Shown here piece by piece: positions 21,017 to 59,474 of a DNA stretch of 64,000 nt. Source of the DNA: Candidatus Latescibacterota bacterium. GTDB lineage: Bacteria > Latescibacterota > UBA2968 > GCA-2709665. The notes beneath the pieces were generated by a model, which ran no database searches, was not told the DNA's origin, and saw nothing but the letters and a program-made list of their open reading frames with translations. Position numbers and translations under genes: made by a program. The stretch is taken from contig OZ244937.1 of assembly GCA_965222075.1 (NCBI GenBank), forward strand, positions 3,584,001 to 3,648,000. The letters are read 5' to 3'. Position 1 is the stretch's first letter. Every line of letters begins with the position of its first letter.

Positions 21017-21343
21017 ATGCACACCGCAGAACTCGGCAGCACCGGTATCCGCGTCTCCCGCCTCTGTTTCGGCACCGGCACCCACGGCTGGGCCGGGCGC
21101 TCGGACCAGGAGCGCATGGACGCAGCCGGCATCGGCGTCTATGGCATGAAAGTGGTCGGCTGTGGCGACCTGGGAAACGACGCCCGGGACGCCATCCACT
21201 TCGTCCTCGACCTCCCCTCGGTAGACGCCATCACCATCGGCATGGCAAGCCGGGATGAAGTGGATGAAAACATCGGCTGGGTCGAATCCCACCTGCCTGT
21301 GCGTCGCACGCAGACAGGCGATCGGTCCTTCCAGCCGGTTTGA
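21017..21343 (+). pseudogene. Internally deleted aldo/keto reductase (N- and C-termini fused) carrying a 27-bp palindromic insert
   Basis: ELGSTGIRVSRLCFGT joined directly to GIGVYGMKV..AITIGMASRDEVDEN; catalytic core missing. Confidence 0.8.
21292..21318 (+). mobile_element. 27-bp palindromic insertion element, copy 1
   Basis: CCTGCCTGTGCGTCGCACGCAGACAGG; exact reverse complement of 58198-58224. Confidence 0.85.
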
Positions 21344-21379
21344 TCACCCTGCGCCAAAACAATACCGAAAGGAACCCGA

Positions 21380-22249
21380 ATGAACAAAATCGCCCAGCGG
21401 TTCAGCTTTGACAGCTATGTCGACGATGGCGGCTACACCCCGGACCTGTATCCCCACCACGAAATCGCCGAAGGTGTCGAGGGGGGATTCGACGGCGTGA
21501 CCGATGAACACATCGAACGCTTTCACGAACAGGGTTACCTGCCCATCCACAACGCCTTGACCGGCGCCGAAGTTCAGGATGTGCTTGCCGGGCTCATCGA
21601 CCTGATCAGTGGAAAAAATCCGGAGTTTAAAGGGGTCCAGTTTGAAAAAAGCGTCCGCGACATCCTGCACACGCTGTCCGGGGAAGAGCGGTGGGATGTC
21701 GTGCGAAAACTCAACTACTTCGTCGGCTACGACGAGCGCCTCACGGCCCTTACAAAACACCCCAAAATGCTGAGTGTGCTTGCTCGCGTCATCGGCGTCC
21801 CTCCCGAACTCTTCGCCCACCAGGCCATCCTCAAGCCGCCCAGAGTCGGCCGCGAGAAGCCCTGGCACCAGGACCACGCCTACTTCAACCTGCCCATGGG
21901 CACCCCCATCGTCAGCGTGTGGGTCTCCTTGGACGAGGCCACCCTCGAAAACGGCTGTATGCACGTCATCCCCGGCACCCACCGACAGGGGCCCCTGGTC
22001 CACTTCAAACGCCGCGACTGGCAGATCTGTGATGCCCATGTTCCCAACGACCACGTCGCGGCCGTGCCCCTCAAACCCGGCGGCTGCCTGCTCTGGCACG
22101 GCCTGATACACCACGGCACCCCGGCCAACACCTCCCCAAAGCGGCGTCGCGCCGTCCAGCTCCACTACATCCCCACAAGCGTAGAACGGACCACCTCCAA
22201 GGAACGCCTGGCCGTTTTTGGCAGCGAGGGCAAAGACGTGACCTGCTAA
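21380..22249 (+). CDS. PhyH family dioxygenase
   Basis: FHEQGYL, KPWHQD, WVSLDEATLENGCMHVIPGTH, HHGTPAN. Confidence 0.92.
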   Translation: MNKIAQRFSFDSYVDDGGYTPDLYPHHEIAEGVEGGFDGVTDEHIERFHEQGYLPIHNALTGAEVQDVLAGLIDLISGKNPEFKGVQFEKSVRDILHTLSGEERWDVVRKLNYFVGYDERLTALTKHPKMLSVLARVIGVPPELFAHQAILKPPRVGREKPWHQDHAYFNLPMGTPIVSVWVSLDEATLENGCMHVIPGTHRQGPLVHFKRRDWQICDAHVPNDHVAAVPLKPGGCLLWHGLIHHGTPANTSPKRRRAVQLHYIPTSVERTTSKERLAVFGSEGKDVTC

Positions 22250-22270
22250 CCCGCGCCGTTAAAATAGACC

Positions 22271-22309
22271 ACAAAGGCCCCAAAGGCAAACCTTCGGGGC
22301 CTTTGTTTG
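22271..22309 (+). terminator. Rho-independent terminator
   Basis: ACAAAGGCCCC-aagg..cctt-GGGGCCTTTGT stem followed by TT. Confidence 0.75.
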
Positions 22310-22441
22310 GGGAACAGAAACTCGATCCCATCTTGAAAGCGTAAAAACTCACCAAAAAGTGTTCACCGTATTGCATCTCAACCTCTTCCCTGTTCTTCCA
22401 TATCCTTACCGAGCCCTTCCGCGATCAAGGGAGAAAAAACC

Positions 22442-23293
22442 ATGTCCCCAAAACACCCCTCTGAAAAAACCAGAGCGCCCGAAGACGGGCCGGCCGAACA
22501 GACAGGGGAAAAACCGAAAAAACTCAAAAAAAAAGCCTATGAAAAAGAACTGGTCAAACTCCAGGTCAAACTGGTCAAATTACAGGAATGGATTAAACAC
22601 AAAGGATTGAAAGTCATTGTCATTTTCGAAGGCCGGGACGCCGCCGGCAAAGGGGGCACCATCAAGCGGATCACCCAGAGCCTGAATCCGCGCATCTGCC
22701 GGGTTGTGGCCCTGGGCACGCCGACCGAGCGTGAGACAACCCAGTGGTACTTTCAGCGCTACATCCCGCACCTCCCGGCCGCGGGAGAGATGGTCCTCTT
22801 CGACCGGAGCTGGTACAACCGCGCCGGTGTCGAGCGCGTTATGGGCTTCTGTACGGATGAGGAGTACGAGGAATTTTTCCGATCCTGTCCCGAGTTCGAA
22901 CGCATGCTTCTCCGGTCGGGCATCCTCCTGATCAAATACTGGTTCTCCGTAAGCGACGAAGAACAGGAATGCCGGTTTCAGGGCCGCATCCACGATCCCA
23001 CAAAGCGCTGGAAGCTCAGCCCGATGGACCTGGAGTCCCGCGCCCGGTGGGTGGAGTACTCCATCGCCAAGGACGAGATGTTCCGCCATACGGATATCAA
23101 ACAGGCCCCCTGGTACGTGGTGAATGCCGATTGTAAACGACGCGCGCGCCTCAACTGCATCCGCCACCTGCTGAGCATCATCCCCTACGAGGATTTAACG
23201 CCTAAACCGATCACATTGCCTCCACGGGAAGCGGACACAGGATACGTGCGCCCGCCGATAACAGACCAGACCTTCGTACCGGAAGTCTACTGA
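22442..23293 (+). CDS. ppk2: Polyphosphate kinase 2
   Basis: FEGRDAAGKGG, FDRSWYNRAGVERVMGFC, WKLSPMD. Confidence 0.96.
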   Translation: MSPKHPSEKTRAPEDGPAEQTGEKPKKLKKKAYEKELVKLQVKLVKLQEWIKHKGLKVIVIFEGRDAAGKGGTIKRITQSLNPRICRVVALGTPTERETTQWYFQRYIPHLPAAGEMVLFDRSWYNRAGVERVMGFCTDEEYEEFFRSCPEFERMLLRSGILLIKYWFSVSDEEQECRFQGRIHDPTKRWKLSPMDLESRARWVEYSIAKDEMFRHTDIKQAPWYVVNADCKRRARLNCIRHLLSIIPYEDLTPKPITLPPREADTGYVRPPITDQTFVPEVY

Positions 23294-23359
23294 GCATCCT
23301 GCTCATTCGGCTTATCCTGTCCACCTGTTTGTGCTTGTGAACGGAGAGGAGGTCCCAAA

Positions 23360-24250
23360 ATGCCCGAATTTCGCGGCGTTTTTCCCGCCATCATCACCCC
23401 CATGACCCCGGACGGCCGGTTCAACGAAGCCGCCTTCCGGAAAGTCATGGAGTTCAACATCCAGGCCGGCGTACACGGATTCTGGATCGCCGGCGGTACC
23501 GGCGAAAGCGTCCTGCTGGACGACGAGGAAAACGGCCGGATGGCCGAAGTCGCCGCCGACCAGTCTCAGGGCAGGGTTACCAACATCATGCACGTCGGCG
23601 CGCCCACCACAACGCGCGCTGCGAAAATGGCCGAACACGCCGCAAAGTCCGGCATCGAAGCCATCTGCTGCGTGCCCCCCTTCTTCTACAGGTCCAGCGA
23701 CGAGGCCATCGGCGAGCACTACAGGACCGTGGCCGCTGCCGCCGACCTGCCCCTCTTCATCTACAACCTGCCCCAGTGCACCGGCATCGAGATCACCCCC
23801 GCCTTAATGGCGAAAATCCAGGAGCGCGTACCCCAGCTGGCCGGGCTGAAGCACTCCGCCCCCACCTTCTCCAACGTGCGGAATTTCGCCAAAATGGGAC
23901 TCTCCTGTCTCATCGGCAGCTGTATGCTCATGCTCCCCGCCCTGACAATTGGCGCGACCGGCTGCGTCGACGGTCCGATCAACACCGCGCCCGAATGCTG
24001 GCTGGAGATCTGGAATGCCTACCGGGATGGAGACCTCAAACGTGCCGAAGCGGCCCAGGACCGGGCCGCGGAAGTGTGCGCGCTCTTTCTGAAATTCGGA
24101 TTCCATGCCGCCATGAAGGCCGCGCTCAGCGAACGGCTGGGCGTCGACTGTGGAGACCCCCGCCCGCCCCAACTCCCGCTCACCCCCGAGCAACGGGCGG
24201 ACCTGAGCAAAAACGTCGCCGAACTCGAGCTGGACAGGGTAACCGTCTGA
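23360..24250 (+). CDS. Dihydrodipicolinate synthase/N-acetylneuraminate lyase family aldolase
   Basis: FRGVFPAIITP, GGTGE, IYNLP, GLKHS. Confidence 0.9.
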   Translation: MPEFRGVFPAIITPMTPDGRFNEAAFRKVMEFNIQAGVHGFWIAGGTGESVLLDDEENGRMAEVAADQSQGRVTNIMHVGAPTTTRAAKMAEHAAKSGIEAICCVPPFFYRSSDEAIGEHYRTVAAAADLPLFIYNLPQCTGIEITPALMAKIQERVPQLAGLKHSAPTFSNVRNFAKMGLSCLIGSCMLMLPALTIGATGCVDGPINTAPECWLEIWNAYRDGDLKRAEAAQDRAAEVCALFLKFGFHAAMKAALSERLGVDCGDPRPPQLPLTPEQRADLSKNVAELELDRVTV

Positions 24251-24270
24251 AAGGTGAAGGAGAAAATCCC

Positions 24271-25881
24271 ATGCCCAGAACCGGCGCAGAGCAGGTTGTC
24301 GACGCCCTGATCGATGCGGGCGTTAAACACCTGTTCACGCTCTCCGGCAACCAGATCCTCTCCGTCTACGACGCCACCATCGGGCGCGACATCCAGCTTA
24401 TCCACACGCGCCACGAGGCCGCCGCCGTGCACATGGCCGATGGCTGGGGGCGGTTGACCGAAGGGCCGGGCGTCGCCCTGCTCACTGCCGGACCGGGGCA
24501 TCTCAACGGCCTCTCCGCCCTCTACGTTGCGCAAATGGCGGAATCCCCGGTCGTACTCCTGAGCGGGCACTGCCCCCACGCCCAAATCGGCAGTGGCGCG
24601 TTTCAGGAGATCGACCAGGTTGCCGCCGCCGGGCCGGTCACAAAGGGATCGTGGCTGGTCGAAGACCCCGGCCGCCTGGGCGCGGAGGTCGCCGCCGCCC
24701 TCTCCCTCTCCCGCACGGGACGCCCCGGCCCCGTCCACCTCAGCCTCCCTGCCGACGCTCTGGAAGCCCTCGCATCCGCGCCGTCCGAACCCCCTTCCGC
24801 CGCCGAACCGGACACCACCGAAATAGACGATGCCCGAATCGACGACACCCTCACCCTCCTTGCCGGTGCAAACCATCCCCTGATCCTGGCCGGACCGGCC
24901 ATGGGACGTCCCCTGCGATGGCCGGACGTGGAACGGCTCTCGGAGATCACAGGCATCCCCGCCCTGCCGATGGAAAGCCCGCGCGGGGTCAACGACCCCT
25001 GGCTGCATATGGCCGCGACCTGCCTCGCCGATGCAGACCTCGTGCTGCTTGTGGGAAAAAAGCTGGACTTCTCGCTCCGGTTCGGCCGGCCGCCTTTCTT
25101 CTCTAAGACATGCCGTTTCATCCGGATCGACGCCGATGAGGAACAGCTGCGTAAAGACGAACGTGTCGTACTCACCCTGCACAGCGATCCCACGCCGGTC
25201 GTCCGGCAGCTAACAGCAGCGGCACAGGCGCAAACCTGGCAGCCCGGCGCCTGGCGCGAAAAGGTCGCAGAAGCCCGGAGCACCACACCCCCCGAATGGG
25301 AACACCTGCGCCAGGCGTCCCATCAGCCTATCCACCCGTTGCGTGTGTGCGAGGCCCTTCAACCGTTTCTGAACGACGACGTATTCATCAGCGACGGGGG
25401 CGAGTTCGGCCAGTGGGCGCAGGCCAGCCTGGAAGCCCGATGCCGTCTCATCAACGGTCCCTCCGGCGCCATCGGCAGCGCCCTCCCTATGGCCCTTGCC
25501 GCCAAACTCGCACATCCACAGCGGCAGGTCTTCGTCCTCTTAGGCGACGGCACCTTCGGCTACCACGCCTTAGAACTCGACACCGCTCTGCGCTACACCC
25601 TGCCCATCATTGTCATTGTCGGCAACGACGCCCGCTGGAACGCCGAGCACCAGTTGCAAATCCGGAACTACGGCCCGGACCGCACCATCGGCTGCGACCT
25701 GCTCCCCTCCCGCTACGACAAAGTAGCGGAAGCCTTAGGCGCACATGGCGAATTCGTCCAGCGCCCCGAAGACCTCACCCCCGCGCTGGAACGCGCAGTC
25801 GTCTCGGCACTGCCCGCGTGCGTCAACATCGCCATCGAAAGCGTCCCCGCGCCCACGTTTCGATTAGAAGAGGGGGTATGA
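24271..25881 (+). CDS. Thiamine pyrophosphate-dependent enzyme (acetolactate synthase-like)
   Basis: RHEAAAVHMADG, TAGPG, GRPGPVHL, GDG..ND. Start ATG 24271. Confidence 0.92.
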   Translation: MPRTGAEQVVDALIDAGVKHLFTLSGNQILSVYDATIGRDIQLIHTRHEAAAVHMADGWGRLTEGPGVALLTAGPGHLNGLSALYVAQMAESPVVLLSGHCPHAQIGSGAFQEIDQVAAAGPVTKGSWLVEDPGRLGAEVAAALSLSRTGRPGPVHLSLPADALEALASAPSEPPSAAEPDTTEIDDARIDDTLTLLAGANHPLILAGPAMGRPLRWPDVERLSEITGIPALPMESPRGVNDPWLHMAATCLADADLVLLVGKKLDFSLRFGRPPFFSKTCRFIRIDADEEQLRKDERVVLTLHSDPTPVVRQLTAAAQAQTWQPGAWREKVAEARSTTPPEWEHLRQASHQPIHPLRVCEALQPFLNDDVFISDGGEFGQWAQASLEARCRLINGPSGAIGSALPMALAAKLAHPQRQVFVLLGDGTFGYHALELDTALRYTLPIIVIVGNDARWNAEHQLQIRNYGPDRTIGCDLLPSRYDKVAEALGAHGEFVQRPEDLTPALERAVVSALPACVNIAIESVPAPTFRLEEGV

Positions 25882-25919
25882 ACATCCTCATCACCTCAGC
25901 TTGTCCGGGAGAGCTATCC

Positions 25920-26456
25920 GTGAATAGACCCGAACTCGCCAGACGCATCATGGCAGCATCCTTTCTAACCGGCCAGTTCAAATTGCGGTCCGGACAGACC
26001 AGTTCATTCTACTGGGACAAATACAGATTCGAAAGCGACCCGGTATTGCTGAGCGCTATTGTGGATGAACTGGAGAATCTGCTGCCGTCCGCTTTCGACA
26101 AACTGGCCGGATTGGAGCTGGGCGGCGTTCCACTGGCAACCGGTCTATCTCTAAAAACGGGCAATCCCTGTCTATTTGTCCGCAAAGAGGCCAAACCCTA
26201 TGGAACCTGCAACCTGGTGGAGGGTGGATTCCACGCGGGAGAAACGGTCGTCGCCGTCGAAGACGTCGTAACCACCGCGGGACAGATGTGCGAATCAATC
26301 GCACGGATGAGGGAGGCAGGGTTGCAGGTTCAACATGCGATCTGTGTGATTGACCGCCAGCAGGGCGGCGAGGAGAACCTGAAAGCTATCGGATGCTCAC
26401 TGCATTCGGTCTTCTCACTGGAAGACCTCGAACACCTGGCTCAGGGCAGTGGGTAA
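25920..26456 (+). CDS. pyrE: Orotate phosphoribosyltransferase
   Basis: GQFKLRSG..YWDKY, VRKEAKPYG, VEDVVTTAG. Start GTG 25920 (in-frame ATG at 25878 also possible). Confidence 0.88.
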   Translation: MNRPELARRIMAASFLTGQFKLRSGQTSSFYWDKYRFESDPVLLSAIVDELENLLPSAFDKLAGLELGGVPLATGLSLKTGNPCLFVRKEAKPYGTCNLVEGGFHAGETVVAVEDVVTTAGQMCESIARMREAGLQVQHAICVIDRQQGGEENLKAIGCSLHSVFSLEDLEHLAQGSG

Positions 26457-26498
26457 TGCTGCTGCGACCTCCACCCTGATTTTAAGTGCCGGATATGC

Positions 26499-26527
26499 TT
26501 GAATCTTGACAGTTTGGACATTATATT
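26499..26527 (+). promoter_or_regulatory. Putative sigma70 promoter
   Basis: TTGAAT-17nt-TATATT upstream of 26585. Confidence 0.5.
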
Positions 26528-26584
26528 GGGTACAGTCAGAAGAGAACTTACCAAAAACTGTTCACAGTATTGAATATAGAAACA

Positions 26585-28675
26585 ATGTTAATCCCCGAAT
26601 CCGAGTGGCCCTCCCTTCGCCGGCGGGCCCAATCGCAGACGTTCAAGACCGCCGTACGCAGGCTCCGGCAGGACGTCGACGCATTCCTGGACAGGCCCAT
26701 CGACATCCCCTCCGAACCGGCGGGCTACTACCACGACTACTTCTGTGCCGAGCACGGCTGCCAGCTCACCTTCAACTCGGCGACCCCGACGGTGCACCGC
26801 TGCCCGGTCGACGGCGCGCAGTATGAGGGCACCCGCTATGACGCGGCCTGGCGCTGGTCGGCGAACAACCTCCTCTCCGAATCCGCAATCCGGCTGGCCC
26901 TGCGCTGGCGCCTGGAGGAGAACCCGGTCTACCTGAAACGCGTGGCCGACACCCTGACCGGCTACGCTGCGCGGTACGCGGACTACCGCCGTGTGGAACG
27001 TTCCAACACAAACCCGGGCGTGGCCACCTACACCACCTTAGACGAGGCCGTATGGCTCATCCCCCTGACCTGGGCGTTCGACCTGGTGCGCCCCGCCCTG
27101 TCGCAGGAACAGGCGGCCGCCATCGCCGACCAGTTGCTCGCCCCTGCCGCCGAATACCTCGTTCAGCGCCACTACGGAGGGATTCACAACTTCTCCTGCT
27201 GGCACAACGCCGCCATCGGCACCGTCGGCCTCGTGCTGGACCGGCCCGACCTGACCGACTTTGCGGTTGACGGAGAATTCGGCTTTCATGCGCAGCTGCG
27301 CGAGGGCGTCCTCTCCGACGGTCTGTGGTTCGAAGGCTCGGTGAGCTATCACTTCTACGCCTTAGCCGGCCTCCTCGCCCAGGCAAAAGCCACATACCAC
27401 ATCTCCGACCTCGACCTGCGGTCCCACCCAACCCTGCATGCCATGCTCTCCGCGCCCATCCAGTGCGCCTACCCGGACGGCTCCCTGCCCGCTCCCAACG
27501 ACTGCTGGTACTTTACCTCCCTCCTGGGCGACTGTTGCCACGGTGTCCCGCCCGCCCCTGCCTTCTACGAAATCGGCTACGCCTGGTACGACGATGCCCA
27601 TTTTGCCCGGGTGCTCCACAGCGCCTATGGCCATATCCTCCGCGACAGCTTAGACGCCCTGCTCTTCGGCAAAGACGAGATCCCGCCGGCCGGCCTGCAA
27701 CCCCAGCCCAGCGTCAACCTGTCCGGTTCCGGCTACGCCATCCTGCGCTCCCCACCGCCGGACCCGGAGTCCGACCCGGAAGACCAGCAATACCTCCTCT
27801 TAAAATACGGCCCCCACGGGGGCGGTCACGGCCACCCCGACAAGCTGAGCCTCATCCTCTACGCCCACGGCCGCCGCCTCGCCCCCGACCTGGGAACACC
27901 CGGCTACGGCCTTGACCTCTTCCAGACCTGGTACCGCCAGACCCTCAGCCACAACACCGCAACCCTCGACGGCCTGTCACAGCCCCCTGCCCAGGGACAA
28001 CTGCACCGCTTCCGGAGCGAGGGACCTTTCCAGTTGGCGGACGCCGGCGTAACCTGGGACAGCGGTCCCTACGGTGGAGTCTCCATGCGGCGCGTCATCC
28101 TCACCCGCCCGGACTATTTTCTGGACCTCTTCCTGGTCGAACCCGACCGCCCCCGTCGGATTGACTGGATCTACCGCACCGCCGGTGCCTGCGAAACATC
28201 CCTGGACCTCGAACCCGTCGCCACCGCCGGTGAGGGGGACGGATATGAACACCTCACCAGCGTGTACAGAGCAAATTCCAACAGCGACTTTGTGTCTACC
28301 TGGCAGTCCGATGGCGCCGGACTCCGGTGTTTTGTCCCGGGTTTCTCCAGCGCCGAGATCCTGACCGGCCTGGCCCCGGGCAACCCGCCCACAGACCTGC
28401 ACACAACCCTCATCCAGCGCCGCCACACCAGAACCACCGCCTTCCTCTCGGTCTTCCATCCTCATACCCATCCCCCCCGGATCACCTCCGTCGACTGGAC
28501 CGGCCGCGACCTGATGGAAACCGGCTGGGCCGGCTGCACCGTCCACCTTCCCGACGCCTCCGAACACTGGACCCTCCGCCTGACCCCCGACACGGTTGCA
28601 CCACCCGGCCCCGAGAACGTGGACGGCCATTTTGAATATTTCCTAAAGAATGTCGCAGGAGCCCCCGCACGTTAG
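26585..28675 (+). CDS. Heparinase II/III family (PL17 oligoalginate lyase-like) protein
   Basis: IHNF..WHNAA, DGLWFEGS, HGGGHGHPDKLS, DLGTPGYG, HNT; no signal peptide. Confidence 0.85.
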   Translation: MLIPESEWPSLRRRAQSQTFKTAVRRLRQDVDAFLDRPIDIPSEPAGYYHDYFCAEHGCQLTFNSATPTVHRCPVDGAQYEGTRYDAAWRWSANNLLSESAIRLALRWRLEENPVYLKRVADTLTGYAARYADYRRVERSNTNPGVATYTTLDEAVWLIPLTWAFDLVRPALSQEQAAAIADQLLAPAAEYLVQRHYGGIHNFSCWHNAAIGTVGLVLDRPDLTDFAVDGEFGFHAQLREGVLSDGLWFEGSVSYHFYALAGLLAQAKATYHISDLDLRSHPTLHAMLSAPIQCAYPDGSLPAPNDCWYFTSLLGDCCHGVPPAPAFYEIGYAWYDDAHFARVLHSAYGHILRDSLDALLFGKDEIPPAGLQPQPSVNLSGSGYAILRSPPPDPESDPEDQQYLLLKYGPHGGGHGHPDKLSLILYAHGRRLAPDLGTPGYGLDLFQTWYRQTLSHNTATLDGLSQPPAQGQLHRFRSEGPFQLADAGVTWDSGPYGGVSMRRVILTRPDYFLDLFLVEPDRPRRIDWIYRTAGACETSLDLEPVATAGEGDGYEHLTSVYRANSNSDFVSTWQSDGAGLRCFVPGFSSAEILTGLAPGNPPTDLHTTLIQRRHTRTTAFLSVFHPHTHPPRITSVDWTGRDLMETGWAGCTVHLPDASEHWTLRLTPDTVAPPGPENVDGHFEYFLKNVAGAPAR

Positions 28676-28753
28676 AGCGGGGTTTGACCTCCCGGGGCAA
28701 ACCACCACCGCGAACAATGATCTTGCGGCCAAAAGCCGCGAAAGGCTGATCTG

Positions 28754-30952: not shown

Positions 30953-31006
30953 GTAGCGCCAGAATCAGAGGGTCGTCTCCGCTGTAACGCAACGCTGGCC
31001 GTAAGA

Positions 31007-33346: not shown

Positions 33347-33367
33347 CGCCGCTCCTTCTTCTTCTGC

Positions 33368-34531: not shown

Positions 34532-34641
34532 CGGTTACCCCTCTTTTTGGTCTCTTTCAACGCCTTCTCACACATATCCGGCACAGAATCGCCGTCTTTA
34601 CTCCCATCGTCCCCCGCTCCTGAATGGTGGATTGCGGTGTC

Positions 34642-35568: not shown

Positions 35569-35590
35569 CGTAAAATCCTCCTTTGGGCAG

Positions 35591-38941: not shown

Positions 38942-38974
38942 GGCACACTCTCCTCTTGTATGATCATTGTGTGG

Positions 38975-39391: not shown

Positions 39392-39394
39392 TTT

Positions 39395-46070: not shown

Positions 46071-46071
46071 G

Positions 46072-46896: not shown

Positions 46897-46987
46897 GCGA
46901 CCCGGGCGACGCGCCTGGCATGGCTCGACGGCTTTTTTAGCTTATATTCAATTACCCATCGATACATAATGTCCAAAGGCCACCGGA

Positions 46988-49191: not shown

Positions 49192-49206
49192 GGGAGGATT
49201 CCATAA

Positions 49207-49323
49207 GTTAAGCAACCAGAAATCTCCCGGCTTAAAAGCGGTAAGTTTTCCCATTACAGCGTCGAACGGCTGATGCGGTTCCTTGAACGCCTCAAGCATT
49301 CATGTTGCCTGTCCGGAGAGTGA
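49207..49323 (+). pseudogene. Fragment of an XRE/HigA-type HTH antitoxin
   Basis: VKQPEISRLKSGKFSHYSVERLMRFLERL, no start codon. Confidence 0.6.
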
Positions 49324-49423
49324 AGGTGCCAAAAAGGTCATTGCGATATAGTCAGAAGCGGTTTCATAACTGGCTTTGCGGCCCCAGAGCGTGCCTGGGG
49401 GCCGTGGACAAGGAGCGTATGCG

Positions 49424-50251
49424 ATGAAGACGACGAATGCAGCCACAGATGTCCCGATTCAGGGCGAGCCGAGCCAGGTTCATCCCATGTCTGAGTACGA
49501 GAAATTTCTCTTTGACCTCAAGGGCTTTCTCGTCATTCCAGGTGTGCTCACCGACGAGGAAATTAGAACGGTGCGTAAGCACACGGAAATCCTGTTGAAA
49601 AACCCCGAAAGCCTGCCCGAGCACCACCGGGCGCCAATTGCCGGGCCAGCGGAATTTCTCATCGATCATCCAAGAGTCATGGGGCTCTTGCAGGCGGTGA
49701 TCGACCCAAAGCGTGAGCGCATTCGTCTGGAAAGCGTCTTTATTTCCGGCCGCTCCGTCGAAAACACCGAAAATCCGTGGCGGCCCCATGTGGGCGGGAC
49801 AAACCTCGACCCCTCGCTGTCCTACCGTTTTCACAACGGTCGAATCTACAGCGGGATGACGCGCATTGTCTGGGAACTGAACGAGGTCAAAAAGGGGAAG
49901 GGCGGCACATATCTGGTGCCCGGCTCGCATAAAGCCAATCTGGCTTCGGCCCAGGACGGGACGTGGCCGGAGGAAGCGGATGATCCGGACTCGGGGGTTT
50001 GGGAGACCTATGGATGTCCGCCGGGAAGTCTCATCATGTTCTCAGAAGGCGTGCGGCATTCCGGATCACCCTGGACAAACCCGGACCATCCCCGCCGCGC
50101 TATTCTCATTGCTTACAACCATGTGACGGTTCGGTTCCACGAGCCCAAACCCTGCATGAATCCGGAGGTGATCGGCGGCATGTCCAAAGCGCATCGGAAA
50201 TTCTTCCAGGACGTTTGGGTTCTGGGCAATGTTCGGCCAAAAAATAAGTAA
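49424..50251 (+). CDS. PhyH family dioxygenase-like protein
   Basis: FDLKGFLVIPGVL, VWELNEV..GGTYLVPGSHK, RHSG. Confidence 0.8.
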   Translation: MKTTNAATDVPIQGEPSQVHPMSEYEKFLFDLKGFLVIPGVLTDEEIRTVRKHTEILLKNPESLPEHHRAPIAGPAEFLIDHPRVMGLLQAVIDPKRERIRLESVFISGRSVENTENPWRPHVGGTNLDPSLSYRFHNGRIYSGMTRIVWELNEVKKGKGGTYLVPGSHKANLASAQDGTWPEEADDPDSGVWETYGCPPGSLIMFSEGVRHSGSPWTNPDHPRRAILIAYNHVTVRFHEPKPCMNPEVIGGMSKAHRKFFQDVWVLGNVRPKNK

Positions 50252-50356
50252 GAAACACATAGATGCCTTAAAATCCTACCAGGTATCAGCCATCAATCTG
50301 TCCTCAGAAGAACTGGCAAAGGATCTCTCCGATGCCAGGAATCTGTAGTATCAATA

Positions 50357-51916
50357 GGGTGTAGGTTTTGATTTACGCAGCTTTTTTCAAAAAGAGGGAC
50401 CCCAAATCCGGGTACGAATGTATTTTTGGGTGTAACCACTTAAGCCCAAAACCCGGAAGGGGGTCCCAGATGGAAGATACACAGAATCTGAGTGCTTGTA
50501 TAGCGAAATTGCAAGAAAATGTCCTCCAGTGGGAGCAACACCTGCAGTCGGAGCAATCAGGACCAGAGGCATTCGGCGAGGTGATGGACGAGCTTCGAGC
50601 CTCTTTGGACGACATCGGTCGGGCCGGGTTCCAACACCTGGCGCAGGCCTGTGAGATCGCGGACGAGACGGTGGTAAGTGAGGATCGGGTATACCGATTC
50701 AAGCAAGTGGTCAACAAGGAGTGGATGACCCTGTGGGGCAAGGTTGTGATGCCACGACGGCTGTATCAGCACGATCGGGGCGGAGCAAGCCGGGTGCCTT
50801 TGGATGAGCGCTGCGGCATGGTGAATCGTTTCATGGTGCCAGCGCTGGAGCGCGTGACGGCCTTTCTGGGCGCCCGCCTGGTCCCGTCCGAAGTCGAGGA
50901 CAGCCTGCGTGAAGTGCTGCCCCAGCCGCCTTCCCGCACCGCGATTCAGCACCTGTTGACCACCGTCGGGCAGGGTGCTGAGGACGGCGCCGAAGCGCTG
51001 GAGTGGGCCTTGCAAGAGGCCGCGCCCCTAAATGCGGAGGGCGACACCTTGGTGGTGAGTTGGGACGGCGTCACCGTGCCCCTGCGCGAGCCAGCGCCCA
51101 AACGCGGACGCCCACCCCAACGACCGATGGCCACCCACACCCACACCGTGCCCACCGCTTGGAAGGAGGCGGGTGTGGGCATGGTCGCTACCTACCGGAC
51201 GCCGCTGCATCCAAAGACGGAAGAACCCCAACGCGTCGATGTGCGCTATGCCGCGCGTATGCCCCAAGCCAAGATGGAGACCCTGGTCAACGGCTTGGTG
51301 GACCAGACGGCAAAGGCCTTGAAGCAGGGGGGCTATGACCATCGAGTCGTGTTGGCCGACGGCAAACGAGCGATCTGGCATACTGTGGACCAGCAAAGTG
51401 TGTTCGACGGGTTCACCCGCATTCTGGACTTCTATCACGCGGCGCACCACCTGTCCAAGGCCGCCGAGTCCCTCTTCGGCAAGGCGACGACGAAAGCGGA
51501 TCGCTGGTACCGACGCTGGCGGCACAAATTGCGCCATTTACCCGATGCCATAAAGGGACTGATCCGCTCCCTGTCCTACCACCGCCGCAAACTGCGAAGA
51601 GGTTCGCAACGCTATCGCCAAGCAAGCGTCGAACTGGGCTACTTCCGCAACAACCAGGATAAAATGGAATACGCCCGCTACCATGCCTTGGGGTTGATCA
51701 TTGCCAGTGGCCCTGTGGAGGCCGCTGCCAAGACCCTCGTCGGCCACCGACTCAAACGCAGCGGTATGCGCTGGACGCGCAAGGGAGGCCAGCAGATTCT
51801 CAATCTACGAGTCCTCGTTCAATCGAAACGATGGGATGCTTTCTGGAACTGGTACCTGCTGCAAACCACACCTATAACAATTCACAGAATCGCAGCGTAA
51901 AAACGAGGCTACACCC
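50357..51916 (+). mobile_element. ISKra4-like insertion sequence, complete
   Basis: Imperfect terminal IRs GGGTGTAG..TTTACGC / GCGTAAA..CTACACCC; 9-bp TSD GTATCAATA at 50348-50356 and 51917-51925. Confidence 0.9.
50470..51900 (+). CDS. ISKra4/UPF0236-type DDE transposase
   Basis: SWDG, LADGKRAIW, LDFYHAAHHL, IASGPVEAAAK, RLKRSGMRW. Confidence 0.9.
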   Translation: MEDTQNLSACIAKLQENVLQWEQHLQSEQSGPEAFGEVMDELRASLDDIGRAGFQHLAQACEIADETVVSEDRVYRFKQVVNKEWMTLWGKVVMPRRLYQHDRGGASRVPLDERCGMVNRFMVPALERVTAFLGARLVPSEVEDSLREVLPQPPSRTAIQHLLTTVGQGAEDGAEALEWALQEAAPLNAEGDTLVVSWDGVTVPLREPAPKRGRPPQRPMATHTHTVPTAWKEAGVGMVATYRTPLHPKTEEPQRVDVRYAARMPQAKMETLVNGLVDQTAKALKQGGYDHRVVLADGKRAIWHTVDQQSVFDGFTRILDFYHAAHHLSKAAESLFGKATTKADRWYRRWRHKLRHLPDAIKGLIRSLSYHRRKLRRGSQRYRQASVELGYFRNNQDKMEYARYHALGLIIASGPVEAAAKTLVGHRLKRSGMRWTRKGGQQILNLRVLVQSKRWDAFWNWYLLQTTPITIHRIAA

Positions 51917-51932
51917 GTATCAATACATCCCC

Positions 51933-52282
51933 ACTGCTTGGAAAATAACCTTTCGGTCTCCGTCATCCGCAATCCCGCCCCACCCTTTCCCATGCCTTCG
52001 GCGAGGCCTTTTTCTTGCGCGCCCAAGAAAAAGGCCGAAAAAGAAGGGCGCCGCTCAAGCGCCGCGGGGGCTGCTTTTCCGCGAATTGTCCCTGTGGTGG
52101 AAGCGGAAGCTTCTGCCCTGCGAGCGCTTGGGGATTCACAAGGCGCAGGTGATGGACGGAACCGCGCGGAAAAGCCCCATCCCCCCGCCCCAAAGGCGGG
52201 GGAGGCGAGACGCGGCAACGATTTTCATCATTATGGGTGCCCCAATGGGGGCATGGCAACTGCTTGGAAAATAACCTTTCGG
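51933..52282. repeat. Highly structured ~300-bp non-coding element flanked by 24-bp direct repeats
   Basis: ACTGCTTGGAAAATAACCTTTCGG at 51933-51956 and 52259-52282. Stems at 52005-52036, 52073-83/52165-75 and 52180-52203. Confidence 0.75.
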
Positions 52283-52326
52283 ATACCCAGGTTCAACAGT
52301 TTTTTTACTTCTACCGAATTGACCAA

Positions 52327-52355
52327 TTGACAAACACTCAGTGTTATGTTATATT
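52327..52355 (+). promoter_or_regulatory. hsdM promoter with palindromic operator in the spacer
   Basis: TTGACA-17nt-TATATT with extended TG; AACACT-C-AGTGTT at 52333-52345. Confidence 0.75.
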
Positions 52356-52361
52356 TCAGAC

Positions 52362-54200
<1,839 letters not shown>

Positions 54201-54233
54201 CACGGACACTGACATTCTACGGAGGCAGGAAAA

Positions 54234-54605
54234 ATGGGAGCGACGCACGTAACGGTCAGGATTACGAATCCCGCTGACCCGGACAGGTTCTGGGAGGGGC
54301 TTTTTCTGGTTGACACCGGCGCCACGGATTCCCTGGCGCCCAGGCCGCAACTGGAAGCCATCGGCCTCAAGCCCGAGGGGAAACGCGTGTATGAACTGGC
54401 CGATGGCAGCGAGATCGCAGCGGACGTCGCCGTTGCCAAGATTGAGTTCATGGGCGAGTTCGTCGGCGGGACGATCATCTTCGGCGAGGCTGACGCGGAG
54501 CCGCTTTTGGGCGTGACGGCGCTGGAATCCGTGGGCATTGAAGTGGACCCGCTGAATCAGCGGTTGAAGAGGTTGCCGGCCGTTCGGCTTAAGGGGCTGG
54601 CGTGA
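54234..54605 (+). CDS. Clan AA (retropepsin-like) aspartic protease
   Basis: FLVDTGAT, YELADG, PLLGVTALE; stop codon overlaps the hsdS start (GTGA). Confidence 0.85.
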   Translation: MGATHVTVRITNPADPDRFWEGLFLVDTGATDSLAPRPQLEAIGLKPEGKRVYELADGSEIAADVAVAKIEFMGEFVGGTIIFGEADAEPLLGVTALESVGIEVDPLNQRLKRLPAVRLKGLA

Positions 54606-55834
54606 CGACAAGGGAGACAACCCGCCTTGCGGACCTGTGCGATCTGATCGCGGAGCCGGTCAAACCCGGTGCGCGGCCAGATGCGCTCTATCTTGGCCTT
54701 GAACATCTTGCCTCGGGGCGGCTTGTTCGCATCGGTGGCGGGTCGGCTTCAGACGTGCGAAGCACGGCCTCGGCCTTCCAACCCGGCGACGTCCTGTACG
54801 GCAAGCTCCGGCCTTACCTGGACAAGGCTGTCCTCGCTAAGGAGGCGGGCGTCTGCACGACGGAGTTGCTGATGCTCCGGGCCAAGGAAAACGTGGACCC
54901 GCGGTTTCTTGCCACGGTCGTCCACTCTCCCGGCTTTCTTGATTATGCCGTCGCGGGAACCACGGGCGTCCAGCATCCGAGGACATCGTGGGCACACATA
55001 CGCGACTTTGAACTATCCGCATTTACGCTCGATGAGCAGCGACGTATTGCCGACCTACTTTGGCTTATACACGAGGCAATGAGCCGATCAGAGAGATTGG
55101 TTGAAGAAGGTCAAGACCTCAAACGCGCCGCGATGCGAATGCTGTTCACACGCGGGCTACGGGGCGAGGCGCAGAAGGAAACCGAGATTGGCCCGGTGCC
55201 GGCGAGTTGGAATGCAGAACCCATTGGAATGCTGACAACTATAGTTTATCGATATCCAACCTACTACAGAATCAACTACAAGGTTAGCGGTGTGCCTGAA
55301 GTGCGAGGCGAGTTGCTTAGGGACGGCGGCGAGATCGAAACAGACCTGTCTCTGTTCCGATTCATTGATGCTGAAACGGCATCGCACTTTCCAAAGGTCC
55401 GGCTTGATGCTGGCGACATAGTCATGTCGGTCCGTGGCACAATGGGAAAGGTTGGCATCGTCCGAGAAGCCCATATTGGAGCTGTCATTACTGCCAACCT
55501 TATTCGTCTAGCGCCCGACCGGCGGCGAATATTACCTGAGTTCTTCAAGGCCACCCTCGTTTCCGAGCGTTTCTTCAGATCACTAGAGATGGCTTCTCCA
55601 CAGACTACAATCAAAACCATCACTGCCCCAGTCCTGAAATCATTACGCCTGCCAGTCCCTCCAACACTCGACGAGCAGCGGGAGATTGTGACCATCCTGG
55701 ACGCCATCGGACGCAAGATTGACCTGCACCGCCGAAAGCGCGCCGTGCTGGAGGAGCTTTTCAAGGCACTGCTCCACAAGCTGATGACGGGGGAGGTGCG
55801 GGTGGAGGGTTTCCCTTCACATCGAATCGGGTAG
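54602..55834 (+). CDS. hsdS: Type I R-M specificity subunit
   Basis: Two TRDs with conserved regions (LDEQRRIA, KETEIGPVPASW, PPTLDEQREIV, LLHKLMTGEVRV). Confidence 0.93.
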   Translation: MTTRETTRLADLCDLIAEPVKPGARPDALYLGLEHLASGRLVRIGGGSASDVRSTASAFQPGDVLYGKLRPYLDKAVLAKEAGVCTTELLMLRAKENVDPRFLATVVHSPGFLDYAVAGTTGVQHPRTSWAHIRDFELSAFTLDEQRRIADLLWLIHEAMSRSERLVEEGQDLKRAAMRMLFTRGLRGEAQKETEIGPVPASWNAEPIGMLTTIVYRYPTYYRINYKVSGVPEVRGELLRDGGEIETDLSLFRFIDAETASHFPKVRLDAGDIVMSVRGTMGKVGIVREAHIGAVITANLIRLAPDRRRILPEFFKATLVSERFFRSLEMASPQTTIKTITAPVLKSLRLPVPPTLDEQREIVTILDAIGRKIDLHRRKRAVLEELFKALLHKLMTGEVRVEGFPSHRIG

Positions 55835-55846
55835 AGGGAACCAAAG

Positions 55847-56749
55847 ATGATTCGAAGTCTTTTCGATGTTCCGGGTCTTAAGCCGTACATTAACCCTGGT
55901 GTATGGGGCAAGGGGCTTGGAGGCCCGATACATACCCTTGACATCCCTCCAATAGATGCACAACTGTGGAGGTACATGAACTTTGCCAAATTCGTATCCA
56001 TGCTAGAAACACGGCAGTTGTTTTTCACCAGGGCAGATAAGCTGGACGACCCCTTTGAAGGGGTTTGGTCAGAGCCGACTTTAAGGCAGCTCGATAGCCT
56101 AATTGTGCATGGTGACGACAAGGGGCGTACGGATCCAGTCACCGGAGATAGATACCTGAGTGAGAAGGAGGCAGCTCGTTCGTGGAAACGCATCATAGGT
56201 GGACACTCTCAAGTGAAAAGGCGATTCACGCTCCTAAACTGTTGGCGTGAAGGCGAGCATGAATCGGAGGCAATGTGGAATCAAACTCCCCGGCATGGTG
56301 AAAAGTACGAACTTGCCATCAGATCCGACTTCAAGTCCCTCGCACATAGTTTCCCCAGCCGCAGCCGCCTACCCGACATAGTAGCGAGAGTTCAGTATAT
56401 TCCGTATCAGACCAAAGAAATGCCTCTGGGTCTTGCTGCTCCTTATTTCCATAAGCGCATTGAATTCCAGGACGAGCGCGAAGTGAGGGCAATTATGTCC
56501 GCCACCCCATATGTACCAGATCCTGCCCATCCCGATCGTGATGACGTGATGGTTCCGGATTACTCAAAAGACGTTTGCGATGTCGGTCTCGGTTACGAAG
56601 TCAACCCTGCTGATTTGATTCACGAGGTGGTTATCAGTCCTCATGCTCAGTCTTGGCTTTCTGAGCTGGTAGTGAGAGTAATAGAGCGGTATGGGCTTAA
56701 AATCCCCGTTAGCCAATCGCAACTCCTTGGGATCCCTCGTTGGAAATGA
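55847..56749 (+). CDS. DUF2971-like protein
   Basis: LWRYMNFAKF, DDPFEG, NCW..ESEAMW, KRIEFQDEREVR, EVVISP; lower GC. Confidence 0.7.
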   Translation: MIRSLFDVPGLKPYINPGVWGKGLGGPIHTLDIPPIDAQLWRYMNFAKFVSMLETRQLFFTRADKLDDPFEGVWSEPTLRQLDSLIVHGDDKGRTDPVTGDRYLSEKEAARSWKRIIGGHSQVKRRFTLLNCWREGEHESEAMWNQTPRHGEKYELAIRSDFKSLAHSFPSRSRLPDIVARVQYIPYQTKEMPLGLAAPYFHKRIEFQDEREVRAIMSATPYVPDPAHPDRDDVMVPDYSKDVCDVGLGYEVNPADLIHEVVISPHAQSWLSELVVRVIERYGLKIPVSQSQLLGIPRWK

Positions 56750-56927
56750 ATATTGAGTCCCCTCCGAAAACGGGGGATATAAAAGCCTGGTGTAAGTGGT
56801 CAGGGTTGGATATTGTGATTTAGCGTGTGGCGACGATATAACGTGTAGGTGCGGCATATCAACTCAGGGTCAACCTACGGAGTTGTTCAGGCCTATGGTA
56901 TGGAGGTTTTTCGCAAGAAAACCCCTC

Positions 56928-58481
56928 TTATGCGGGGAGCATCGGGGGTGTTGTGAGGTAATTCTTGATCCGAACCAGGTTGACCCATAGGCCACGACAC
57001 CGCGCCCACAATTGGTGTGGCCTCAGTCCGCGATAGCGCGTCTTGCCATCTTTGGTGTAGTAGCTCAACTGAAAGATGCTGGCTTCGACGTTATTGCGTC
57101 GGTTTCTGATGTGGTCAGGCAGGGCTTCAATCTGTTTGCGTTTGAGGTAATTGTCGATGTGCTGTTCTTTAAAGTATCGGGGTTTGCCATCCATGATGAT
57201 TTTGTATTTTCCCGGTTTGTATTCTTGGGCTATGTGAACCTCTCCGGTTTGTTGATCAATGACGGTGACGCCGTCTTCTGTGCGTTCATAAATGAAACGT
57301 CCTGGGGTTCCTTGCAGGCCACTGTAATAGAATTGCTTGTCCTGTTCTTTTGCATACTCGGCGTTGGATTGATCATTATAGGCCCCATCCATTGACACTT
57401 CCAAGACGTCACCCACCACCTGTTGCGTCCGCTCGATGGCCGCTTGGACAAACGCATTGTCGGGCGTCGTCGCCGGTTTGACGTCAACGTCCGTGATCAA
57501 ATTGAGGCCGTCCTCACCACAGGTCTCGGTGAGGTTGACACTGTATCCTTTCACCTTGTCCTTCCCTTTCCTGCGAAAGGCCGCCTCTTCATCATCGGCA
57601 GACTGCAAGGAGGATGAGGAGATCTCTTCAGGAGGCTTCGGAAGCACCTGTTTGGAGGACGATAAAACGGTATATTGATCCCCCATAACACGCACGATCA
57701 GACCATAGTGACCGCTGTCTTTGTCGGTATAGGTCGCTTGAAGCCTGCTCAATAACTGCCCGAATTCCTGCAGCTTCTCACACTTTTCAACGCGGGTGAG
57801 ACCATAGACAACCTGATGCGCCTTCACCTTGAGCAATCCGTCCAAAACCTGCTGATTTTTTGCCGATAATCGTCGCTTTTGGGACTTGTCCAACGACCCC
57901 CAGAACGCTTGTAAGCAACTCACCACCAACTGCAACCGACAACAAAGGGCAATGTTCGAGCCGATCAACTTACTGTCCATTCGGATGTGCTGACCCAATA
58001 CACCAAAGGCGTTGGCCTGCGTCCTGGTTAAGCTGGAAAAGGTCTCTCCAATCAGATCTCGACCGGCTTCGAGTTGATCCGCATACAATGCCTGCTTGAA
58101 CAAATAATACGTGGACTCCGCAGGCACTTCATCGCATAGATTCATCAACCCCAATGCCCGCATCACCAGGATGTTGAACCGACAATGCTCGAATAGTCCT
58201 GTCTGCGTGCGACGCACAGGCAGGTGGGCATCGCTCCACCCAAAGCCCTCCTTCAAGATCATCATCGACACCAGTTGACGAATCGGCGCATTGGGGCGGC
58301 CTTGGTTGGGATCAAACAACACCGAAAACACATCCTCATCTATCTTTGAGGTGACGTGCTGGTAAAACAGATTATGCCACGACTTCGGATCATTCAACTG
58401 GTCCTGCTTGCGCCTCTTGAAATGCGACTCGAAGCCCGAAAACAGATCCGGTTGGCTGCATGACGCGCTTCTCTTATACAT
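56928..58481 (-). CDS. DDE transposase with a 9-aa in-frame insert (LPVRRTQTG)
   Basis: GRPNAP, RMDSKLIGSNI, MDGAY, RNNVEASIF. Confidence 0.88.
   Translation of the reverse strand: MYKRSASCSQPDLFSGFESHFKRRKQDQLNDPKSWHNLFYQHVTSKIDEDVFSVLFDPNQGRPNAPIRQLVSMMILKEGFGWSDAHLPVRRTQTGLFEHCRFNILVMRALGLMNLCDEVPAESTYYLFKQALYADQLEAGRDLIGETFSSLTRTQANAFGVLGQHIRMDSKLIGSNIALCCRLQLVVSCLQAFWGSLDKSQKRRLSAKNQQVLDGLLKVKAHQVVYGLTRVEKCEKLQEFGQLLSRLQATYTDKDSGHYGLIVRVMGDQYTVLSSSKQVLPKPPEEISSSSLQSADDEEAAFRRKGKDKVKGYSVNLTETCGEDGLNLITDVDVKPATTPDNAFVQAAIERTQQVVGDVLEVSMDGAYNDQSNAEYAKEQDKQFYYSGLQGTPGRFIYERTEDGVTVIDQQTGEVHIAQEYKPGKYKIIMDGKPRYFKEQHIDNYLKRKQIEALPDHIRNRRNNVEASIFQLSYYTKDGKTRYRGLRPHQLWARCRGLWVNLVRIKNYLTTPPMLPA
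58198..58224 (-). mobile_element. 27-bp palindromic insertion element, copy 2
   Basis: Identical to copy 1; excision turns WSDAH-LPVRRTQTG-LFE into WSDAQLFE. Confidence 0.9.
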
Positions 58482-58743
58482 CGATACTGTACCCTCGCTT
58501 TTTCCTTTTTACATCCGCAACTTTGAAACCTTTTCTCTCTTGGAATTTAATACTTTTTCCTCAATAAGTAAACTCGACTTTTCGGAGTGGACTCAATATT
58601 GGGTACCTAAGCTTGGAGTTTGAGAGGCCGCAGCGCCTGTTTTGCGTCACTCAGTTCCGGGGAACCAAAATGGATGGCGTTTCTGGCATACCGCCCGTTC
58701 AACTTCGCGCGGATCGACGAGTCACACCATGCTGGATCATGAA

Positions 58744-58840
58744 GTGAGACCCGACGACATCTCAGCACTGTTCGCGGCCGGCGAGTACGAGACGCTGGAG
58801 TTCAAGGCCACGACCGAGACGCGTCGCGAGGCTACCATGA
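58744..58840 (+). pseudogene. N-terminal stub of an AlbA_2/Schlafen-domain protein
   Basis: MRPDDISALFAAGEYETLEFKATTETRREA. Confidence 0.6.
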
Positions 58841-59116
58841 GTGATGTATAACGTTTCTGTTGGTTCTGGCCAAGTCTTAGGATCAGACAACTTGAACTTG
58901 GCGCCGTGTATTGGAGGACGTCCCCATCCTCGATAGGGGGGTGGGGGTCCCCAAAGACATCGATTGGGACGGATACGGATGACCTGATCGGCGTCAATAT
59001 CGGCCGTGGTTTCCACGAAAGGGGCACAGCCATATTCTGAGTCCCACAAGCTGATGGGACGACCCTTCACCGCTTTTGACACCCGACGGAGTTGGTCCGC
59101 GCCTTTCTTTATCGGA

Positions 59117-59143
59117 CCTGTCTGCGTGCAACGCACAGGCAGG
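59117..59143 (-). mobile_element. 27-bp palindromic insertion element, copy 3 (one substitution)
   Basis: CCTGCCTGTGCGTTGCACGCAGACAGG; excision gives STTDPIKK. Confidence 0.88.
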
Positions 59144-59449
59144 TCGGTTGTGCTTTGGATGCGCTCATGTAATAAAGGCAGCGCAAAGCTTCGCTCCTCA
59201 TCGGGAAGAAAGGCGAGGGTGCTGTAGCCTTGCCCAATCGTAATGGGCTTGTTGCCCCATATCGGGGTGGGATGATGCTCAATGGTTCGGTCGCGTAAAG
59301 TCCGCGCTGACAATCGCGGCCAAGCCGTGTGATCTCCCACAAAAAGGGGACGATCATCTACTTTTATCTCATCAGCATAAAGCTTCAACAACGCGTTTTG
59401 GTCTGGACGACCATCTTGAAGGGCTTCATAGACACTTGGCCACTGCCGA

Positions 59450-59474
59450 CCTGCCTGTGCTGAAGGCAGACAGG
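59450..59474 (+). mobile_element. 25-bp variant of the palindromic element, copy 4
   Basis: CCTGCCTGTGCTGAAGGCAGACAGG; excision fuses the two transposase ORFs as PVFRRQWPSVYE. Confidence 0.85.

Follow-up and report, generated by a model that had tools for sequence, protein, structure and literature searches.

A genome-wide family of mobile 25-36-bp hairpins with base-exact insertion in a Candidatus Latescibacterota bacterium

A 64,000-nucleotide stretch of the genome of a Candidatus Latescibacterota bacterium (bases 3584001-3648000 of a single 5.36-Mb contig, 59.3% G+C; hereafter, the window) carries four copies of a short hairpin. They are members of a family of non-autonomous mobile elements found throughout the genome, each consisting of one imperfect hairpin of 25-36 bp. 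The insertions are recent and base-exact, and they lie in genes as well as in spacers. The family as a whole is mainly intergenic and similar to the repetitive extragenic palindromic sequences (REPs), the copies in coding sequences being a minority. We put the probability that the element moves as a single hairpin, inserted to the base without target duplication, at roughly 0.85. Mobile palindromic repeats of very small size have been described before, as have REPs within genes; this family itself was not found described in open-access papers and preprints, supplements excepted.

Empty sites of the four window copies

A sequence-only reading of the window had proposed four copies of a 25-27-bp palindromic element lying in three unrelated genes, with two copies identical and a third differing by one base. 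With the pattern CCTGYCTG-N9-13-CAGRCAGG, exactly these four matches were obtained in the window (Table 1), whereas none was obtained in 100 dinucleotide-preserving shuffles. Copies 1 and 2 are exact reverse complements of each other, and copy 3 differs from copy 2 by a single base. The hosts are indeed three genes, namely a remnant open reading frame (ORF), a transposase gene with a DUF772 domain, and a DDE_5 transposase gene. An Rfam scan of the window gave no match at the gathering score.

Since no paralogs of the three host genes were found in this genome, empty sites were sought in relatives, and aligning the host genes to their homologs gave one for each of the four copies. For copy 1, a same-genus ortholog (L209) was collinear with the host minus exactly 27 bp, the boundary being ambiguous by 1 nt. 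The insertion sequence (IS) that hosts copy 2 occurs once in this genome and in several copies in relatives; when seven related copies of it (L199-L204 and L206, from six relatives) were aligned, all seven lacked exactly 27 bp and read GAATAGT|TGGGC. For copy 3, seven of seven homologous DDE_5 transposases, 57-77% identical in the alignment, showed a gap of nine residues exactly at LPVRCTQTG and read QSTTD-PI(K/Q)KG, and for copy 4, seven of seven homologous transposases carried an uninterrupted PVFRR(Q/R)WPS where the 25-bp copy splits the frame. The peptides that had been derived by exact removal of the element were correct as read, and homologs support the WSDAQLFE-type sequence as well as the two sequences just given. 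Conserved ancestry of the nine-residue segment had been named as an observation that would speak against insertion, and the seven transposases lack the residues of copy 3.

The same result was obtained outside the window. In a CusA-like gene elsewhere in the genome, 11 loci were tried, four of which had no nucleotide match in that stretch; seven of the seven alignable orthologs lacked exactly 27 bp and read TTTTCCGA|TCACC, the filled form being TTTTCCGA, the element and then TCACC, with unambiguous boundaries and nothing duplicated. The precise insertion claimed at first for the window therefore holds for its four copies and for the CusA-like gene. No target-site duplication was present at the verified empty sites (the CusA-like gene, copies 1 and 2, and the IS pair described below). 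The solved CusA likewise has no counterpart of the inserted stretch, the local gap being larger (~33 residues), and the 12 residues contributed by a 36-bp element in a UvrA homolog fall in a gap relative to the solved UvrA.

Table 1 The four hairpin copies, their host genes and a polymorphic site in the window.
Feature	Position	Strand	Description
Host of copy 1	21017..21343	+	108-aa remnant ORF, no Pfam match
Copy 1	21292..21318	+	27-bp hairpin in CCTGCCTGT...GCAGACAGG orientation, in frame, predicted to add LPVRRTQTG
Host of copy 2	56928..58481	-	517-aa IS transposase ORF, DUF772 domain
Copy 2	58198..58224	-	27 bp, same as copy 1, sense-oriented in the transposase gene, predicted to add LPVRRTQTG
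Host of copies 3 and 4	58762..59701	-	DDE_5 transposase gene in two frames (59426-59701 and 58762-59505)
Copy 3	59117..59143	-	27 bp, predicted to add LPVRCTQTG
Polymorphic site	59430..59431	.	runs X2 and X3 with one more 27-bp element (CCTGCCCG...CAGGCGGG subfamily); window without it
Copy 4	59450..59474	+	25 bp, frameshifts the DDE_5 transposase gene that also hosts copy 3

On the sense strand of the DDE_5 gene, copy 4 lies in the orientation opposite to that of copies 2 and 3 in their genes. This gene is dead in three ways, by the in-frame 27-bp element, by the frameshifting 25-bp element and by a C-terminal loss of ~160 residues compared with homologs of 437-454 aa. The ORF hosting copy 1 resembles an internally deleted gene: its counterpart in the relative G001 (C216:2075-2979, the L209 ortholog) has ~470 bp extra between the halves that match it. 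After the IS remnants, a 1043-aa ORF (60649-63780, + strand) looks similar to the R subunit of type I restriction enzymes, as judged by eye from its translation.

Recent insertions, polymorphism and nesting

Two copies of a 1.7-kb IS in this genome are ~99% identical and share two older elements, and one of them has four extra elements of 27, 27, 25 and 25 bp, all base-exact and all flanked by A|T. One of these four insertions is the same 27-mer as the extra element at position 59430, ~20 bp from copy 4, which was seen in contigs of two other studies. Recent activity, which had been proposed from the sequence, is thus borne out both by the four extra insertions in the near-identical IS copy and by the additional element in other samples. 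Copy 4 was bridged by contigs of runs X2 and X3, whereas for copies 2 and 3 no record listed among the Logan contigs bridged the element with 31 letters on both sides. Logan short-read contigs break at the element repeats.

Contigs at least 99% identical to the IS of copy 2 (window 57900-58466) were also present in run X16, an RNA library labelled as sponge metagenome, for example one of 346 letters with one difference, which hints at the habitat. The RNA-library contig over copy 2 extends just 21 letters to the right of the element, and this is insufficient as a sign of transcription through it.

Elements were also found inside elements. A 27-mer lies within another 27-mer at five loci (54 bp in total) or within a 33-mer at three loci (60 bp), and these 54-mers and 60-mers are separate loci, each with its own flanks. 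The occurrence of the composites at various loci with their own flanks indicates that the ends of the element define the moving unit. At G000:C1:611297-611461 (L180 1395-1658), a remnant of an IS200-type tnpA with the N-terminal sequence SIRHTVWECKYH is interrupted by nested family elements.

These results bear on the opposite explanation, that the hairpins are immobile and represent either ancestral sequence precisely deleted in relatives or an adapter or assembly artefact. Palindromes are prone to deletion, and the breaks of short-read contigs at the elements would fit such an origin; however, the empty-site series already contradicts it, as the site is empty in seven orthologs, which span several genera, and filled in one gene. 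The nesting, the single direction of all four differences between the near-identical IS copies, the variable loops with many subfamilies, the presence of elements in sequencing runs of several studies, two of which bridge copy 4, and the many in-frame insertions argue against it as well, and we regard immobility as practically negligible.

The family in the genome

A search of the whole genome with the ends CCTG[CT]CTG...CAG[AG]CAGG gave 284 hairpins of 19-60 bp. When strict matches of up to 36 bp were counted, there were 225 in the genome and none in the reversed genome. The lengths peaked at 33 bp (93 copies), 27 bp (50), 30 bp (19), 25 bp (17) and 36 bp (13). The ends are constant, and the interiors vary among subfamilies with their self-complementarity kept. 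Hence, the sizes of 25-27 bp first described are present, but they are part of a family of 25-36-bp subfamilies with variable interiors.

Both flanks were non-coding for 215 of the 284 elements, compared with 773 of 3000 random sites, and 99 of the 283 gaps between neighbours were shorter than 1 kb, compared with ~15 expected. The densest clusters lie in ORF-poor DNA and are not centred on a gene. Insertion into coding sequences, the feature stressed by the sequence-only reading, applies to 17-48 of the 284 elements in plausible coding frames, whereas the family is mainly intergenic. Among the hosts confirmed by Pfam are a UvrA homolog, which has two elements, a CusA/AcrB-type pump, UvrD, HsdR and a Cas4-Cas1 fusion, as well as proteins of the xanthine-dehydrogenase and ABC types, a histidine kinase, an amidase and a glycosyltransferase; two host ORFs tested (L010 and L017) gave no Pfam match.

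A second dispersed repeat with GTTAGCCAATCGTCCGG adjoins several hairpins, as though the hairpins enter at a fixed place in that repeat (G000:C1, for example at 4226324, 4359896, 4935305, 3988235, 4466355 and 4771169).

Target site and coding-compatible make-up

Target statistics were calculated from 97 oriented copies of the asymmetric subfamily in this genome. The base at -1 was a purine in 93 copies and that at +1 a pyrimidine in 88, the two bases usually being complementary, and C was found at -4 in 79 copies; the target mostly reads C-S-A|T or C-G|C. In the symmetric subfamily, C at -4 was found in 47 of 105 copies. In foreign genomes, G occupied -1 in 69 of 86 copies and a pyrimidine +1 in 73 of 86, and C at -4 was weak (34 of 86).

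When the distinct sequences of the family were examined, 95 of 107 were free of stop triplets on both strands, compared with a mean of 58.7 (sd 4.6, maximum 73) in 300 sets with shuffled interiors, a control that is crude because shuffling destroys the palindrome. The length was divisible by three in 80 of the 107. With stop triplets nearly absent from both strands, in-gene copies would add 9-12 residues, such as (D)LPVRRTQTG, and their tolerance within genes is attributable to their length and stop-free sequence. The addition of peptides such as LPVRRTQTG to proteins, as had been claimed, stands at the level of the sequence, where the copies are in frame. The predominant in-gene frame gives (D)LP...Q(A/T)G peptides, and this would fit insertion into the GA|T of an Asp codon. 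Taken together, the multiple-of-three lengths and the stop-free make-up suggest that the parasite itself has been selected for landing harmlessly in genes.

Distribution among relatives, phyla and phages

Across 40 relatives, the number of elements ranged from 0 to 193, and the same range, 0 to 193, was observed inside one genus; the reversed-pattern control gave none in the relatives. The exact 27-mer, with its 2-nt loop left free, was found in at least 118 stretches of named genome records. Among the matches listed, the record titles name Thermodesulfobacteriota, Nitrospirota, Verrucomicrobiota, Kiritimatiellae, Latescibacterota, Methylomirabilis, Brocadiaceae, Anaerolineae, Bacillota, Spirochaeta, Planctomycetota and Elusimicrobia, a spread over phyla that rests on the labels of metagenome-assembled genome (MAG) records. 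A further record is a 3.8-kb contig binned as a Methanosarcinales archaeon, which is not to be leaned on. The loci had G+C contents of 38 to 68%. An Opitutales MAG contained 46 family members and a Bacillota MAG 24, three of whose sequences (a 25-mer, a 29-mer and a 30-mer) were identical to those of this genome, and Gallionellaceae, Mariprofundaceae and Nitrospira MAGs had one element each.

The 27-mer was also present in 17 stretches of viral contigs, with one to five family members (mostly at least two) per locus of 1-15 kb. Four related viral contigs with the 27-mer carry tailed-phage terminase, capsid or cement genes, and the only genes recurring around the viral loci were phage structural genes of four related phages.

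Such a distribution might be expected if a universal host enzyme that cuts single-stranded DNA through a 5'-phosphotyrosine, for example a type IA topoisomerase, moved the hairpins with no dedicated transposase. Type IA topoisomerases prefer C at -4. Of the 97 oriented copies, 79 have C at this position of the left junction, and the right junction has C at -4 as well, since all elements end in CAGG. The occurrence of identical elements in phages and in MAGs that bear the labels of many phyla, and the failure to find a cognate transposase (see below), point in the same direction. However, C at -4 falls to the proportions given above in the foreign genomes and in the symmetric subfamily, and counts of 0-193 among congeners would be left unexplained. 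Movement by a host enzyme with no dedicated transposase is accordingly regarded as quite improbable.

Search for a mobilizing enzyme

The elements themselves are gene-free, and none of the enzymes sought proved cognate to them, in line with the non-autonomous nature first supposed. A search of this genome with PF01797 gave one intact IS200-type tnpA, at G000:C1:2071937-2072296, together with two remnants; an element has inserted into one of these remnants. A RAYT-like ORF (G000:C1:3242104-3242871; RAYT, REP-associated tyrosine transposase) encodes 255 aa with an HVH motif and scored 55.6 bits against NF047646, for which the cut-off is 80. PF07282 (tnpB), PF00078 (reverse transcriptase) and PF01548 (IS110) were not found in this genome, and PF04986 (IS91) was represented by a single broken fragment. 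The missing PF00078 counts against an RNA route there. Since the genome is 97.6% complete, the absence of enzyme families is not proven.

Several observations weigh against the reading of a mobile hairpin. Across all families and genomes searched, no enzyme was tied to the elements. An HUH/RAYT or IS200/IS605 TnpA gene flanked by the same hairpin, for which the sequence-only reading had suggested a search, was sought and not found: the hairpins of the intact IS200-type tnpA are unrelated to the family, of which no copy lies within 1.5 kb of that gene, no hairpin of the family lies within ~1.1 kb of the RAYT-like ORF, and none of 16 RAYT-like loci of relatives was flanked, one having a single 33-mer beside the gene. 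Matches to Y1_Tnp were uncoupled from the elements (133 elements and no match in G019, one element and 75 matches in G038), and the Gallionellaceae MAG combined 13 RAYT-family matches with one element. A strand bias would be expected for a route through the single-stranded DNA of the lagging strand, but the orientation relative to the replichores was 56 versus 41, which is not significant. As DNA, the 27-mers and 25-mers fold with -5.0 to -6.9 kcal/mol (z -1.5 to -1.7), which is moderate. Lastly, a phage terminase examined as a foreign empty site showed a gap of 17 residues and no clean gap of nine. As for the folding itself, the proposal of an imperfect hairpin stands, bulged bases being present, and a 33-mer of the family folds strongly (-15.6 kcal/mol, z -3.9); it is the 27-mers and 25-mers for which stability is moderate only.

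In the large-terminase gene of that phage (L228 6468-8930 and L233; IMG/VR contigs), the 27-mer is in frame and reads TCLRATHRQ. The gaps were measured against two related phages, and another gap of seven residues lies upstream of that of 17.

The RAYT-like ORF raises a second alternative, that of an ordinary REP family mobilised by the genome's own RAYT. The hairpins are similar to REPs as short (20-40 bp), GC-rich, imperfect palindromes that occur in hundreds per genome, mostly extragenic, and that are patchy among close relatives. PMC3733652 records REPs occasionally inside genes including uvrA and uvrD, and copies in such genes were observed here likewise. Furthermore, with the RAYT-like ORF as the query, a match was obtained in 12 of 13 genomes with at least 14 elements and in five of 28 with fewer, a threshold set post hoc for genomes that are kin. 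On the other hand, REPs are defined in PMC3733652 by a GTAG or CGTC tetranucleotide tag at one end, whereas neither end of the hairpins has such a tag, their flanks showing only the purine at -1, the pyrimidine at +1 and the C at -4. The doublet arrangement of REPINs was not seen, as 24 of 221 gaps between neighbours were shorter than 120 bp with no preferred spacing, and the unit of exact insertion seen here is a single hairpin. No RAYT gene flanked by the family, as in REPINs and REPtrons, was present in this genome or at the 16 loci of relatives, and the RAYT-like ORF is itself unflanked with a score under the cut-off. Matches to the NF047646 model, a sensitive one, were obtained in 31 of 41 relatives and, irrespective of the element count, in four of five foreign genomes. 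In the Opitutales and Bacillota MAGs, which are rich in elements, the RAYT-like proteins were just ~28-31% identical to that of this genome. In G009, the RAYT (100.8 bits to NF047646) is flanked by different repeats of its own, namely CGAGGGCAGGGATGCCCTCG units. Finally, the hairpin sequence differs from REPs in that phages and records with the labels of many phyla share it. An ordinary REP family with its own RAYT is thus unlikely.

The G009 locus (L174, C3:191500-194500) has a textbook RAYT arrangement in its own right, with a 201-aa RAYT ORF at 1006-1611 and repeats at 721-949 and 1625-2488, that is, one unit upstream and three downstream of ~230 bp each, with CGAGGGCAGGGATGCCCTCG palindromes. 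Large ORFs of relatives with a weak Y1_Tnp match were rejected as transposases, being DUF1156 methylase genes. In L176 (G002:C2:152000-171999), for instance, ORFs 11396-14974 and 17130-20000 combine DUF1156 and N6-adenine methylase with a Y1_Tnp-like segment at residues 309-384; an SNF2 helicase with a NOV_C domain and an AAA_15 ATPase lie nearby, and the neighbourhood has the look of a defence island.

The elements might also be minimal miniature inverted-repeat transposable elements (MITEs), in which the terminal inverted repeats of an IS of the DDE type have lost the interior and are moved by the transposase of that IS. The conserved ends and co-varying inner arms resemble terminal repeats, and the composites with extra cargo move as units. 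However, the verified sites lack the target-site duplication, and no parent element was found in this genome: no convincing longer element with matching 16-nt ends was obtained between 0.2 and 8 kb, as nearly all of the 62 candidate end pairs were separate hairpins and the remaining few had three mismatches. At 80 foreign loci, no transposase recurred near the elements, the only recurring genes being response regulators (five loci) and ABC ATPases (four). We consider such an origin highly unlikely.

Discussion

Our results favour a mobile element that consists of one hairpin and nothing else. The hairpin is inserted whole and by itself, with a target purine on one side and a target pyrimidine on the other, and no target base is gained or lost. 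The ends CCTG[CT]CTG and CAG[AG]CAGG define the element, and the interior is free to vary and even to house another element. Surviving copies are mostly found in DNA that is non-coding or in decay, IS remnants for instance, and in-gene copies persist if their length is divisible by three. The hairpin may move as folded single-stranded DNA, which would be cut and rejoined at both feet of the stem by an enzyme acting in trans; like the TnpA of IS200/IS605 or a RAYT-like HUH protein, this enzyme would leave a 3'-OH and a 5'-phosphotyrosine. HUH chemistry is proposed because it yields insertion free of duplication, in one orientation, beside an asymmetric target. By analogy, a mobilizer of this HUH-like 5'-phosphotyrosine class is a tentative candidate, and we hold its probability somewhat under even odds because the cognate gene is missing and there is no strand bias.

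The comparison with IS200/IS605 elements illustrates both sides of this proposal. Those elements have two differing end hairpins, with cleavage sites some bases off the stems. The present family is similar to them in its insertion without target duplication, in its fixed orientation beside an asymmetric motif (C at -4, purine at -1) and in its imperfect hairpins with bulged bases, whereas it differs from them in that one hairpin is the whole element. The sole intact tnpA with its unrelated hairpins, the lack of tnpB in this genome and the absence of a significant replication strand bias are further differences.

Among other small repeats, the small dispersed repeats (SDRs) of cyanobacteria are reportedly 21-27 nt long, were judged mobile via nesting and presence or absence, and are said to have no known transposase. 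They are also said to be limited to one cyanobacterial group, the heterocyst-forming one, and some of them to be made of heptamer repeats. Compared with SDRs as so described, the present family is similar in nesting and size range and different in its ends, CCTGCCTG and CAGGCAGG, in its length of 25-36 bp and in its spread over many phyla. The Rickettsia palindromic elements (RPEs) are said to be ~100-150 bp long and restricted to Rickettsia. Like RPEs, the hairpins are palindromes inserted in frame into protein-coding genes, to which a peptide would be added with the frame kept; unlike them, they are 25-36 bp long, have unrelated ends and are mostly intergenic, RPEs reportedly being several times longer. 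In PMC3733652, RPEs are described as CGTC-tagged and are linked to REPs.

A more far-reaching interpretation would be that of a pan-prokaryotic "nano-transposon" of 25-36 bp, shaped by a length divisible by three and by six stop-free frames for landing harmlessly in genes, crossing phyla partly on phages and moved by machinery outside the known transposase families. We consider this doubtful; if true, no smaller mobile DNA would so far have been delimited to the base, and its mover would be either a host enzyme that is conserved or a protein acting in trans that has escaped recognition.

The multiplication of REP-like palindromes has been argued over for decades, mostly on indirect evidence. 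In this genome, what moves can be seen with base precision, namely a whole hairpin that inserts with no duplication at a purine|pyrimidine step and that nests in its own kind. The fresh insertions in one genome and the polymorphism between samples provide a defined substrate for biochemistry. The presence of the 27-mer in MAGs of many labelled phyla and in phage contigs raises the question of which conserved machinery reads the 27-mer and how it travels. If the family has been selected for harmless landing, it would be a steady source of insertions of 9-12 residues, for example in CusA, UvrA, UvrD, HsdR and Cas4-Cas1. The main points of interest are therefore the base-exact view of palindrome movement, the spread over labelled phyla and phages, and the coding-compatible make-up of the element.

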